The notes under the pieces were generated by a model that saw nothing but the letters and a program-made list of their open reading frames with translations, made no database searches and was not told the origin of the DNA. Below, one piece after another: positions 59,720 through 64,000 of a stretch of 64,000 nt of DNA. Where the stretch lies: assembly GCF_003018235.1 (NCBI RefSeq), contig NZ_CP027437.1. One strand, 5' to 3'. A program made the position numbers and the translations under genes. This stretch comes from Escherichia coli. Lineage in GTDB: Bacteria; Pseudomonadota; Gammaproteobacteria; Enterobacterales; Enterobacteriaceae. Each line of letters opens with the position of its first letter. Positions within the stretch are counted from its first letter, which is position 1.

Positions 59720-59732
59720 TTCCTGTTTTATT

Positions 59733-59770
59733 CAATGAGGGTTGCCCGGCAACCCTCATTGCTCATTGTT
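59733..59770. terminator. Bidirectional terminator between convergent yeeX and pduV
   Basis: Inverted repeat atgagggttgcccggcaaccctcat. Confidence 0.6.
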
Positions 59771-59819
59771 TCTTTTCTGTGTATCAAAGTCATCATTCCC
59801 ATCTGATAAGCTATTGAAA

Positions 59820-60263
59820 TTAGCGACAGCCTTCTTCTGTATGCAGCAAGACAAAAAGTTCTGCAACTCCATTGTTATTAACCGCACTGGTTACTAACAC
59901 ATTGTGCGCTCCAGCTTCCCGTAACCAACTTTTCACCAAAGATATTTGTTCCATGCTGGCTAAATCTGCTTTGGTGACTACTCCAATAACAGGGCGATTC
60001 ATTGACGAGGTAAAGCCTGGCGAAAAAGGGGACCACGGTGCGTCCGCATTAAGCACCAGGGCGATAATGTTCGCTTCGCAGGCGCTGACCAACAGAGCAC
60101 TGTAGAGGCTGCGGTTTTCGAGGTATTCGCCTGGTGTATCAATGGTGGTCGGGGACCAGACGATTGCCTGCGTTTTCTGATAATGAATATTTTCGCCACG
60201 CAGACATTGCGTGAGTGACGTTTTTCCGCACTGGCTGGGGCCGATAAGCATCATACGTTGCAT
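59820..60263 (-). CDS. pduV: Microcompartment-associated GTPase (PduV/EutP family)
   Basis: 147 aa with P-loop [10 protein letters not shown]; last gene of the minus-strand BMC operon. Confidence 0.8.
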
Positions 60264-60267
60264 AACG

Positions 60268-60642
60268 TCAGGTCCGCGTAATGGGGCAGGCGGTAAAGCG
60301 CATCATTTCACCCAGCGTACGGGTAACCTGGCTAAGTGCATATTCAATGGCAGAAACATCACCAGTCAGCACTACGGCACCGGTAAAACGATCAAGAAAA
60401 CCGATCTCTACAGCGCCTGATTTTGTGGCGATATCGCATGCGATGATAGATGCTTCGCTGGGGGTTATCGTCAGAATGCCAATAGCAGAAACGGTGTCTG
60501 GTAAACCCAATTTCTTAAACAGATCCTTCCCAGGATTGGCGATAACATGTGCCAGCGTGACCTGCTTACCAGGGACATATTCCTGAATCATCCGTTCAGT
60601 TGTGTGCTGAGTTGTCATTATCCCTCCACCATCTGACGCCAC
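60268..60642 (-). CDS. pduU: Bacterial microcompartment shell protein (PduU/EutS-type)
   Basis: Single BMC domain of circularly permuted type; coordinates taken from the ORF track, true start probably an internal Met. Confidence 0.75.
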
Positions 60643-61172
60643 ATGGCTTCATGTGGACGGGCAATCACCGACCGATAGACCAACAAACCTTTTTCTCCCG
60701 CACGCTCGCTGGCGACAGAGACCGCGTTATTAACATCTGAAATATCGCCAGCAACCACCATGTAGCATTTACCGCCAATGCCAAAAGCCATATGCACGCG
60801 AACAAGAATGACATTCGCAGCTTTGACAGCACAATCGGCAGCGTCAATGCAGGCAGCGACACTCCAGGTTTCGACTACGCCGACAGCCCGGTGCTGCTCA
60901 ACATGGTTCAGTCCGCTGATTGCAGAAAGGAGACTGGGATGAATATTCGGCAGGACAAGACTGTCGACCAGCATTTCACCAGCAAGGGAAGCACCGCTGT
61001 TGATGGCCTGTTGCACCGCACCCACATCGCCACCGAGCATCAGCAGAAATTTTCCGGGGCATAGCGTTTTGCTGACCAGTAACTCAACGTTGGCGCTTTT
61101 CAGCATGGCGTCGCCGGTTTCCATCCCTTTCGCGATACTGCTAAGTTCTAAAATACCTACCGCTTTCGACAT
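60618..61172 (-). CDS. pduT: Bacterial microcompartment shell protein with tandem BMC domains (PduT-type)
   Basis: 184 aa, two BMC repeats ([27 protein letters not shown] ... [25 protein letters not shown]). Confidence 0.8.
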
Positions 61173-61174
61173 CG

Positions 61175-62518
61175 TTAACCTCTCACAAGCGTAATCGCGT
61201 TTTCTGTCACATCGCTGACCATGCCATCAATACTGGCATGAATGGAGGCACCTAATGTGCCGTGTGGAATTTGACCTACACATTGCCCATGAACGACGCG
61301 ATCGCCTTTTTGTACACACGCAATTGCGCTAGCACCGATGTGCTGGCGTAACAATAACGTCACTTTTTCGGGCTGAGGCACCTGTTCAGACAATGGCGCA
61401 TCCTGATACCACGGGGTTAAGCCCAGTCTGGTTACCAGCCGTTTTACGGGAACCAGTCGATAATTTGCCATGGGATCTGCAGGATTTAATGCACCTTCGT
61501 AGCGGAGATTTTGTGCGCGTAATTCCTGCTTAAGCAGGCGGTTTATGCGCATTGGTGAAATTCCTACCGGACAGGCGACGCTGGCGCAGACGTTGCACTC
61601 CGAACAGGTGAGCGCCGTCAGTAACAGTTGTGGCGTAGCGAGCTGTTGGTAGTTAACCGCACGTACTAATAAATGGGGTGCCAGTTCGTGACCGATTAAA
61701 TGACGTGGGCAGAGATCGGTACACAAGCGGCATTGCTCACAAACAGTTTTCGCGACGGCAAGTACGCTGCGGTTATTCTGCATTCGACGTTGGATCAGTG
61801 AATGAGAGTTGGGTAAAACCAGCAAGCCGCCAGTGGTTTTGCTGACTGGTGTGTCGAGCGATGTGATCAAACTTCCCATCATCGGCCCGCCATTGATAAA
61901 ACCAGGAGCATCCACTGTTGCGCCGCCCGCCAGCGCCAGGACTTCACGTAAAGACATGCCGATGGGGACGGTTACCGTTATTGGTTTCGCCACTGCACCA
62001 TTAACGGTGAGTGTGCGGCGCGTCACTGGATACTGTTGCTCGACGGCTCTGGCAATATTAAGTACGGTTTGAACATTATTGACCACCACACCGACGCTAA
62101 CGGGTAATGCAGCGGGTGGAACGCGGCGACCAGTTGCCATCCAGATGGTCAGCACTTCGTCTCCTGCGGGGTAAACGTCGGGCAAAATATGCAGGCGGAT
62201 ATCCGGTGGTAATAGGGGAGTGAGTGCGTTTATTGCCAGTTGATATTTCTCTTTCAGCGCGATGATTCCGCTACTGGCCCCGGTGGCTTTCATCGCATAG
62301 TGAACACCGCGAAGCAGGCGGCTGGCTTGCTGCGCCATTAACTGTTGATCCACTTTCAACATTGGTTCGCATTCCGCCGCATTCACCAGGAACGTGTCAA
62401 CACGCGCTTGTAGCTTAATATGGGTTGGGAAACCTGCGCCGCCAGCACCCACGACACCAGCTGCCTGTACTCGCTCGCGGATGGTCTGGTCGTCGCAGGA
62501 GGTTAACTCGACGTTCAT
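61175..62518 (-). CDS. pduS: Cobalamin reductase PduS (RnfC/NuoF-like flavoprotein with Fe-S clusters)
   Basis: 447 aa; cysteine clusters [12 protein letters not shown] and [19 protein letters not shown]-binding region. Confidence 0.8.
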
Positions 62519-63627
62519 AACAACTCCTCGAGCAGTTCTGCAATAGCGGTGGCATCAGCCGCACGCGGGTTGGTACGCAACGTTGCATCCGCCAGTGCCG
62601 CCTGAACCATATCTGGTATGCGTATTGACCATTCTGCTTTTTTTTCTTTCAGCACATTGGTAAGAGTCGGTAGCTTACAGGTTGTTTTAAGCTGTTCAAT
62701 ATGTTGAATAAGTGTATTCAGGCTGGCGGTGTCATTGGCGTTGTCCGGGCATAAATGGCACGTTTTCGCCAGCCGGGCGTAGCGTTTGGCAGCGCGCGGA
62801 TCGCCAGCATTAAAGCGGATAACCGCCGTGAGCAGGAGCGCATTCGCCAGGCCGTGTGGCAGATGAAACTGTCCGCCGAGTTGATGAGCAATTGCATGGT
62901 TTAATCCCAGTCCAGCCTGGCTAAAGGCCATTCCTGCAAGTGTCGATGCATTATGCATTTTGCCACGGGTAGCGAGACAATCGCCTTTCTTCACTGCAGT
63001 GGGCAGGTATTGAAAAACAATTTGCACGGCTTTTTCGACCAGTGCATCCGTGAAGTCGCTGGCGCGGGGAGAAACATAAGCTTCAAGCGCATGGGTTAAA
63101 ACATCCATCCCGGTATTGGCCGTTATCGCCGGTGGCACGCTGACGACCAAAGATGGATCAAGGATCGCGATATCCGGATAAAGTGCATTATCGAAAAGGG
63201 GATATTTAATCCCTTTCTCAGGATCGCTGATGACACAAGCACTGGTCACTTCGGAACCGGTACCGCTGGTGGTGGGAATGGCTACGCAGGTTTCAATTTC
63301 AATGCCACACTGGCGACCGAACCAGACAATTGCTTTTGCGGCGTCCAGGGCAGAACCGCCGCCAAAACCGATAACTACATCCGGGCGTAAAGTCTGCATT
63401 TGCGCAATGCCTTTCACCACGGTCTGGATAGTTGGGTCGGGCGTTATTTCGCTAAAAATACTGAGACGATTACTGTCGGGCAGCGCCTGATGCAACGTGT
63501 CAATAAGTGGTGAGCGTGCCAGAAAGGCATCGCAAATAATCCAGATGTGTCTATGAGAGAAACGGCTAAGTACCTTGAGACTTCCTGGTCCGCTGTATAA
63601 ACGCGTCTGCAGTGAAAAAGTATTCAT
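62515..63627 (-). CDS. pduQ: Iron-containing alcohol dehydrogenase (1-propanol dehydrogenase PduQ-type)
   Basis: 370 aa; Fe-ADH family motifs (GGGSALDAAK, histidine cluster HAIAHQLGGQFHLPHG). Confidence 0.8.
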   Translation of the reverse strand: MNTFSLQTRLYSGPGSLKVLSRFSHRHIWIICDAFLARSPLIDTLHQALPDSNRLSIFSEITPDPTIQTVVKGIAQMQTLRPDVVIGFGGGSALDAAKAIVWFGRQCGIEIETCVAIPTTSGTGSEVTSACVISDPEKGIKYPLFDNALYPDIAILDPSLVVSVPPAITANTGMDVLTHALEAYVSPRASDFTDALVEKAVQIVFQYLPTAVKKGDCLATRGKMHNASTLAGMAFSQAGLGLNHAIAHQLGGQFHLPHGLANALLLTAVIRFNAGDPRAAKRYARLAKTCHLCPDNANDTASLNTLIQHIEQLKTTCKLPTLTNVLKEKKAEWSIRIPDMVQAALADATLRTNPRAADATAIAELLEELL

Positions 63628-63637
63628 TTCCGTTTCT

Positions 63638-64000
63638 CTAGCGAATTGAAAAGCCGCTGGTTAACACGCAGCGTCGTGAGCGGGCAAAAGTCCGTGCTGA
63701 CGTTGTCCCTTCTCCGGTCGGTGTTGCAATGGTAAAGGTCGTAAAGCCTTCGCCGCCGACGCCAATACCCGCCCAGGAGGGGCCGTTTTTGACAAAGATT
63801 GAGGTTTGCATAACGCGTGCGGCAAGGTTGAGCCGTGAGACGTTCTGCGAGTGCATAATTGCCGTGTGGTGCAAGCCGTCTTCCACTTTCAGCGCCAGGG
63901 TGAGAGCGCTATCAAAATCGTTGACCTTCACAATGGGCAGCATTGGCATCAGTTGTTCACAAGTAACCCAACTATCATTGGCGTCGACAACAGCAATCAG
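63638..64000 (-). CDS. pduP: CoA-acylating aldehyde dehydrogenase (PduP-type), C-terminal part only; continues beyond window end
   Basis: C-terminal ALDH-like sequence in frame to the window edge; upstream of pduQ as in pdu operons. Confidence 0.7.
   Translation of the reverse strand: MIAVVDANDSWVTCEQLMPMLPIVKVNDFDSALTLALKVEDGLHHTAIMHSQNVSRLNLAARVMQTSIFVKNGPSWAGIGVGGEGFTTFTIATPTGEGTTSARTFARSRRCVLTSGFSIR

Follow-up and report, generated by a model that had tools for sequence, protein, structure and literature searches.

The propanediol utilization (pdu) operons most comparable to the one considered here are those of Salmonella and Citrobacter, in which pduABCDEGHJKLMNOPQSTUVWX lies beside pocR, pduF and the cob/cbi genes. 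In Salmonella, the cob-pdu cluster ends with pduX, and S. bongori retains a pduX fragment at that place (PMC3158058). The PduX protein, an L-threonine kinase, acts in B12 synthesis, its product threonine phosphate being used for the aminopropanol linker via CobD and CbiB (PMC6249242). Both PduW and PduX of Salmonella are cytosolic and are not microcompartment components (PMC7181861). Here we examined the pdu operon end in a 64,000-nucleotide stretch of Escherichia coli DNA (contig NZ_CP027437.1 of assembly GCF_003018235.1; hereafter the window). An original prediction, made from the sequence alone, had the operon ending at pduV directly against the convergent gene yeeX, now tmaR, with pduW and pduX missing. 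The end at pduV was confirmed, with a spacer of 100 bp separating the two stop codons. We find that this is the standard Escherichia pdu operon tail, already annotated in hundreds of RefSeq genomes.

An operon end without pduW and pduX is already known, in that papers describe the E. coli arrangement implicitly and state the absence of PduW. The pdu gene table of adherent-invasive E. coli (AIEC) LF82, in which pdu expression has been reported, ends at pduV (PMC6379400). In the pdu-positive Crohn's disease isolate ZvL2, a PduL homologue was present at 80% identity and the sole PduW homologue was TdcD, at 44% identity (PMC7360682). A PduW equivalent could likewise not be identified in E. coli in a structural study (PMC3475010). 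A literature search found no published statement of the gene string 'pduABCDEGHJKLMNOPQSTUV'.

The distribution of this operon end was determined among 5,426 complete E. coli genomes. A 4.7-kb query (59300–64000) gave a match in 5,417 of them, with at least 80% of the query covered in 644. Full-length pduV together with the spacer was present in 642, including that of enteropathogenic E. coli (EPEC) E2348/69. All of these 642–644 pdu-positive genomes, ~12% of the set, end at pduV beside tmaR. As had been proposed, pdu occurs in some E. coli only. Among pdu-positive complete genomes, NZ_CP104371.1 comes closest, with 99.7% identity over 59300–64000. Its annotation lists pduABCDEGHJKLMNOPQSTUV, pduF, pocR, a cobalamin riboswitch, a hypothetical open reading frame (ORF) and cobUST; pduW, pduX and cbi genes do not appear in its annotation at the pdu locus. 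The pduCDE and pduGH genes, which would lie beyond the window end at 64000, are present in this genome, as are the shell genes pduA, B, J, K and N, although none of the complete genomes is near-identical to the window overall.

The same end was seen beyond E. coli. A collection of species-representative genomes yielded Escherichia loci from E. coli E69, a second E. coli, E. whittamii and E. albertii, and in all four pduV lies ~110 bp from tmaR. The window agrees with them, its pduV stop falling within 100–110 bp of the tmaR stop with a hairpin between. Pdu-positive E. coli such as LF82, ZvL2 and E2348/69 share the locus and the end at pduV (95% identity over pduV and the spacer for E2348/69), and differ from the window by allelic divergence only, at 1–8% of nucleotides. 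The proposal that the locus might be a distinct pdu variant is therefore contradicted by the 642–644 E. coli genomes, E. albertii and E. whittamii, which all end at pduV beside yeeX, an outcome that had been named beforehand as its refutation. Between genera, PduV varies most at its C-terminus, which pduW overlaps in Citrobacter; in E. albertii NBRC 107761 (positions 10001–10432 of locus L006) the pduV stop comes four codons earlier, giving 143 rather than 147 amino acids.

Searches of the window for the two missing genes were negative. Citrobacter PduW and PduX gave no tblastn match in the window, and PduW gave none at any Escherichia locus compared. Smith-Waterman alignment of the spacer to six Citrobacter-group pduW-pduX regions returned scores of 19–22 against a shuffle mean of ~19 (standard deviation 2.2), and 20 to 105 of 200 shuffles per comparison equalled or beat the score of the real spacer. 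MAFFT alignments of both deletion flanks revealed no convincing pduW or pduX remnant; a weak likeness to the pduW 5' end (~48% identity) was dismissed as a forced alignment. An Rfam scan of 59100–60400 at E ≤ 1 gave no match. The predicted absence of pduW and pduX after pduV is thus upheld by the tblastn result and by a spacer alignment no better than shuffles. Fragments of either gene in the 59720–59820 spacer, which had been named as a possible refutation, were found neither by tblastn nor by local or flank alignment. The spacer sequence is conserved across Escherichia, and the 58 nucleotides from the pduV stop to the hairpin have no counterpart at the Citrobacter pduX 3' end.

The alternative arrangement is uniform outside Escherichia. 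Some 20 loci from Citrobacter, Pluralibacter and Pseudocitrobacter and a soil metagenome-assembled genome (MAG) read pduV-pduW-pduX-tmaR-yeeA with the same synteny, and all non-Escherichia loci recovered carry pduV-pduW-pduX-tmaR, including that of the soil MAG, whose PduV is only 65% identical. In Citrobacter youngae, pduV is followed by a 404-amino-acid acetate/propionate kinase (NF009063, 828 bits), that is pduW, then by a 288-amino-acid GHMP-family kinase (PF00288), that is pduX, and then, on the other strand, by tmaR and yeeA; the pduV stop is overlapped by pduW in Citrobacter. The gene order given in the original prediction, with pduW and pduX after pduV, holds for the Citrobacter-group loci and, from the literature, for Salmonella. 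The window shares with this type its site beside tmaR-yeeA-sbmC-dacD and the order P-Q-S-T-U-V, and the closest E. coli genome also has pocR, pduF and the B12 riboswitch. Amino acid identity of PduV, U, T, S, Q and P is 72–91% to Citrobacter/Pseudocitrobacter and 65–86% to the soil MAG. In contrast, the window is without the ~2.2 kb of pduW-pduX between pduV and the tmaR terminator, and the last 3–6 residues of Citrobacter PduV, at the overlap with the pduW start, differ from those of the window.

The closest E. coli genome also lacks the cbi genes found between the riboswitch and cobU in the Salmonella/Citrobacter cluster. In NZ_CP104371.1 (positions 37579–38409 of locus L001), the riboswitch is followed by a 145-amino-acid hypothetical ORF without a Pfam family and then by cobU. 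This ORF occupies the place where the Salmonella cbi genes sit, also borders the strain 1190 pdu deletion on the left, and may be the scar of a cbi deletion.

At blastn sensitivity, Citrobacter pduW-pduX DNA matched a single one of the 5,426 E. coli genomes, on a separate pdu island flanked by insertion sequences (IS). This genome, NZ_CP166879.1 (locus L030, 5243959–5275127), belongs to E. coli strain 48 from a deer (5.94 Mb), and its IS66/IS21-flanked island holds a pdu operon in which an acetate/propionate kinase gene (locus positions 14992–16188; 74.9% nucleotide identity to Citrobacter pduW) directly follows pduV, with no pduX. No other genome of the 5,426 has a pduW-like gene, and the island has the appearance of a second type of pdu, gained by horizontal transfer. 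Two metagenomic contigs carry E. coli-type pdu under other labels: DXKH01000123.1, a MAG contig labelled Citrobacter sp., has an E. coli-type pduU-pduV (99% amino acid identity), and JADFIX010000334.1, from a MAG labelled Planctomycetota, has a pduV fragment and the tmaR end (100% amino acid identity over 25 residues). Both are probably E. coli contamination or mis-binning.

Divergence and base composition were then compared between the operon and its flank. Nucleotide identity to E. albertii is 86–95% for the pdu genes and 85–88% for dacD, sbmC and yeeA; the corresponding values for C. youngae are 73–79% and 72–77%. GC content is 49–54% in the pdu genes and 46–50% in the flank. Since both measures track the flanking core genes, they fit an operon that has descended in place ever since Escherichia and Citrobacter separated. 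Its site between cobUST and tmaR-yeeA-sbmC-dacD would be the ancestral one in enterobacteria. Because the state without pduW and pduX is common to E. coli, E. albertii and E. whittamii, a single old loss is indicated: in all probability the window holds a native chromosomal Escherichia-type pdu end, from which pduW-pduX was lost once, no later than in the common ancestor of these three species.

Several points weigh against this reading. The pduW-pduX deletion is deduced from phylogenetic distribution, no remnant being directly visible in the spacer, and we likewise infer that TdcD or AckA substitutes for PduW and that PduX is dispensable in E. coli. An analysis of sequence type ST372 reads the presence of pdu as repeated acquisition (PMC9997745); this can be squared with homologous recombination bringing the locus back from other E. 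coli, yet opposes purely vertical descent within the species. The window stops within pduP, and pduA-O, pocR, pduF and cobUST are extrapolated from the 99.7%-identical relative. The strain of the window is a mosaic, no complete genome matching 40000–64000 above 96.7%. Finally, the Salmonella comparison is drawn from papers and the sequence comparison from the Citrobacter group.

A wider reading would have the Escherichia pdu operon as a 'salvage-only' version of the enterobacterial cob-pdu supra-operon that is specific to the genus and passed on vertically rather than being an island gained horizontally, with cbi and pduX trimmed early, pduW lost as a collateral, and the 88% of pdu-negative E. 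coli arising through at least 4–5 different deletions that each end inside pduV and spare the tmaR terminator. We lean towards this scheme, though only slightly.

The best-surviving alternative is that pduW and pduX were never in the Escherichia lineage, the ancestral operon ending at pduV and the kinases being added in Citrobacter and Salmonella. The lack of significant similarity of the spacer to pduW/pduX and the unmatched 58 nucleotides between the pduV stop and the hairpin are what such a history would leave. It is nevertheless unlikely, as pduV-pduW-pduX-tmaR occurs at every non-Escherichia locus, Pluralibacter, Pseudocitrobacter and the divergent soil MAG included, and S. bongori has a pduX fragment as its last cluster gene (PMC3158058). 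The junctions in Citrobacter are moreover tightly packed and old-looking, with pduW overlapping the pduV stop and the pduX stop lying in the tmaR terminator arm. Kinases of the pduW type occur in distant Firmicute pdu loci as well.

The spacer contains one strong hairpin, which had been described as shared by pduV and yeeX and placed about 100 bp after the last pdu gene. That distance fits the length of the spacer; the hairpin itself lies 58 nucleotides past the pduV stop and 13 past the tmaR stop. Its stem has 7 GC pairs among 13 and is directly followed on the plus strand by CTCATTGTTT..., with a folding energy of -21 kcal/mol (z = -4.46). A terminator scan called the hairpin on the plus strand only and none on the minus strand. 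Past the stem, pdu-sense RNA reads AAUAAAACAGG, and there is no T-tract on the pdu side, so that a bidirectional terminator serving both genes is not indicated. In an alignment of ten Escherichia and Citrobacter sequences, 82.9% of cells were paired, compared to 32–47% with the partners slid. Eight of the 13 pairs change on both sides, and none of 500 shuffles reached the observed score; given a small alignment of related sequences, this covariation is supportive, not decisive. Citrobacter has a hairpin at the same position downstream of tmaR, with the pduX stop codon within one arm. With the T-tract on the tmaR side only and an orthologue in Citrobacter, the hairpin is best read from its sequence as the conserved tmaR terminator. 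An effect on pdu transcripts, by stalling or stabilising them, is also conceivable.

The pduV-yeeX spacer had further been taken as the junction of accessory and core DNA. Instead, it effectively belongs to the core: 5,410 of the 5,426 E. coli genomes have the spacer, almost always together with a 3' part of pduV, and the breakpoints fall inside pduV. The commonest lies at window position 60002 and accounts for about three quarters of genomes in evenly spaced ranking samples, among them the K-12 derivatives BW25113 and MC4100 as well as O157:H7. Lesser breakpoints occur at 60118, 59996 and 59987, and a few fall in the spacer or at its edge (about 59823 and 59806). In BW25113, the retained piece is a 183-nucleotide EutP/PduV coding sequence with an intact 60-amino-acid ORF, named yoeF in some records; it adjoins a fragment of a transposase gene and yeeW, cbtA and cbeA of CP4-44, with tmaR on the other side. 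K-12 yoeF is the same DNA as window 59820–60002, and the spacer, hairpin and tmaR follow it as in the window, but it stands as a 3' remnant next to the CP4-44 prophage remnant, where the window has an intact 444-nucleotide pduV and the upstream operon. In strain 1190 (locus L031), a clean deletion fuses the ORF upstream of cobU to a 297-nucleotide pduV fragment (breakpoint 60118). Since such pduV 3' fragments remain, the pdu-negative state of E. coli is a derived one, produced by deletions that end at several points inside pduV. The retained fragment is 92–94% identical to the window pduV, and identity is ~97% over 700 bases including tmaR.

Retention of this DNA might also mean that the spacer or the pduV 3' fragment is functional itself, as a source of a 3' untranslated region-derived small RNA, as the small protein YoeF, or as a bidirectional terminator shielding tmaR. 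The spacer persists in 5,410 of 5,426 genomes, mostly with the pduV piece, despite at least four deletion endpoints; the hairpin is strongly structured and covarying; and RefSeq annotates an intact 60-amino-acid ORF in K-12 derivatives. Retention is, however, expected anyway, as deletions taking the tmaR terminator would be counter-selected, and the commonest endpoint could stem from one inherited event rather than from selection. The lower identity of the fragment (92–94%, compared to ~97% over the 700 bases with tmaR) suggests weak constraint, Rfam gave no match, and a T-tract is missing from the pdu side of the hairpin. We therefore regard a function of its own as very unlikely.

Least credible of all is a strain- or lineage-specific variant, produced by a recent pduW-pduX deletion or by an acquired island with its edge at the pduV-yeeX spacer: the presence of pdu in just ~12% of complete E. 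coli, the repeated acquisition proposed for ST372 (PMC9997745) and the one foreign IS-flanked island might suggest it, but pduV-spacer-tmaR is found in all 642–644 positives, E. albertii and E. whittamii, the near-universal spacer with its pduV 3' fragment puts any island edge elsewhere, and pdu divergence and GC equal those of the flanking core genes.

On the favoured reading, a native operon that lost pduW-pduX once, transcription activated by PocR would run from the pduA promoter through pduV into the 100-bp spacer. In the microcompartment, 1,2-propanediol would be converted to propionaldehyde and on to propionyl-CoA, 1-propanol and propionyl-phosphate by PduCDE, PduP, PduQ and PduL. The final, ATP-yielding step in the cytosol would fall to a housekeeping acetate/propionate kinase, TdcD or AckA. 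As PduW is cytosolic in Salmonella, a housekeeping cytosolic kinase could plausibly finish the pathway in E. coli, and ackA is a core gene of the species. PduX would be dispensable; its product, threonine phosphate, is used solely when the aminopropanol linker of B12 is made de novo. Pdu-positive strains would instead salvage corrinoids through CobUST, as suggested by the closest pdu-positive genome, which is without cbi genes at the locus. Loss of pduX is consistent with a salvage-only lifestyle, and pduW was perhaps lost in the same 2.2-kb event. The remaining operon would later have been lost in most E. coli by deletions ending inside pduV, leaving the yoeF scar.

The significance of the finding is small and mostly a matter of bookkeeping, of use to annotators and to those studying pdu in AIEC and extraintestinal pathogenic E. 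coli (ExPEC). The E. coli pdu operon is better compared with Escherichia references, where the pduV end is the norm, than with Salmonella LT2. K-12 yoeF and its equivalents are pduV deletion scars, and pdu-negative E. coli therefore descend from ancestors that were pdu-positive here. The breakdown of propanediol by E. coli would rely on a housekeeping kinase (TdcD or AckA) and salvaged corrinoids, which bears on models of gut propionate production and B12 cross-feeding. If true, the vertical, salvage-only scheme would also revise the view of pdu in AIEC and ExPEC from an 'accessory island gained by pathotypes' to an 'ancestral trait retained by a minority'.

The identity of the minus-strand genes as the distal pdu genes P, Q, S, T, U and V, also claimed originally, was supported by ORFs, family scans and the annotation of the closest pdu-positive genome (Table 1). 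The order pduP-pduQ-pduS-pduT-pduU-pduV is collinear with the Citrobacter loci. PduV belongs to the EutP/PduV family by a full-length match over the curated cut-off (TIGR02528, 184.6 bits, cut-off 138.35, residues 2–140 covered; PF10662, E = 8e-55, 185 bits) and by an N-terminal P-loop, GPSQCGKT, at residues 8–15 of the translation; across residues 1–144 it is 78–79% identical to Citrobacter PduV. Shell genes with bacterial microcompartment (BMC) domains are present: PduU scores 134.4 bits against NF012012, over the cut-off of 123, and is 91% identical to the Citrobacter protein, whereas PduT (85% identical) matches TIGR02526 at E = 4.7e-46, yet at 156.7 bits falls below the equivalog cut-off of 250.3. 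The pduS name is based on position between pduQ and pduT, with 84% amino acid identity to Citrobacter; Salmonella PduS is a cobalamin reductase (PMC7181861). The partial PduP covers positions 346–465 of 465 in NF011927 (E = 2.4e-61). In NZ_CP104371.1, pduP, pduQ ('1-propanol dehydrogenase PduQ'), pduT and pduU are annotated with the same names.

An ethanolamine utilization (Eut) operon was considered and rejected. PduV is a member of the EutP/PduV family and PduU is a shell protein of the EutS type, resembling eutP and eutS, but the gene order and neighbours of the window are pdu-type, and the scores for EutP (44 bits, cut-off 258) and EutG (220, cut-off 556) were far too low. On the plus strand, the flank of the window reads dacD, sbmC, yeeA and yeeX (tmaR). 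TmaR scores 188.5 bits against NF040881 and 197.6 bits against NF003844. Its mechanically called ORF begins at ATG 59324 (131 amino acids), an upstream over-extension; the start at 59390 (109 amino acids) is backed by the family models and all RefSeq annotations.

Table 1. Features at the pduV end of the pdu operon and its tmaR flank, in window coordinates
Feature	Position	Strand	Remarks
tmaR (formerly yeeX), DUF496 phosphotransferase system (PTS) regulator	59390–59719	plus	core gene convergent with pduV; NF040881
Intergenic spacer, tmaR stop to pduV stop	59720–59819		exactly 100 bp
Predicted tmaR intrinsic terminator hairpin	59733–59761	plus	13-bp stem, 3-nucleotide loop, then T-rich tail; CTCATTGTTTCTTTTCTG
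pduV, EutP/PduV-family small GTPase-like protein	59820–60263	minus	last operon gene; 147 amino acids, 444 nucleotides; family profile scans
pduV 3'-terminal 183 bp (yoeF in K-12)	59820–60002	minus	kept by most pdu-negative E. coli
pduU, BMC shell protein	60268–60618	minus	EutS-like, circularly permuted BMC domain; NF012012
pduT, tandem-BMC-domain shell protein	60618–61172	minus	TIGR02526
pduS, RnfC-like flavo-iron-sulfur protein	61175–62518	minus	TIGR01945 RnfC subfamily, 256.5 bits
pduQ, iron-containing 1-propanol dehydrogenase	62515–63627	minus	iron-containing alcohol dehydrogenase (Fe-ADH) family matches
pduP, CoA-acylating propionaldehyde dehydrogenase	63638–64000	minus	C-terminal 120 codons only; gene cut by window edge

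The mosaic make-up of the window also shows outside the operon. Positions 20883–42973 hold a 22-kb O-antigen region with an IS3 element and a gnd that shares only 80.6% identity with the NZ_CP104371.1 gene. The O-antigen region is of a rare type, 99.9% identical to only five complete genomes, for example the pdu-negative NCTC10973, and the colanic-acid and his-pdu segments on either side of it are similar to other strains at 95–98%.

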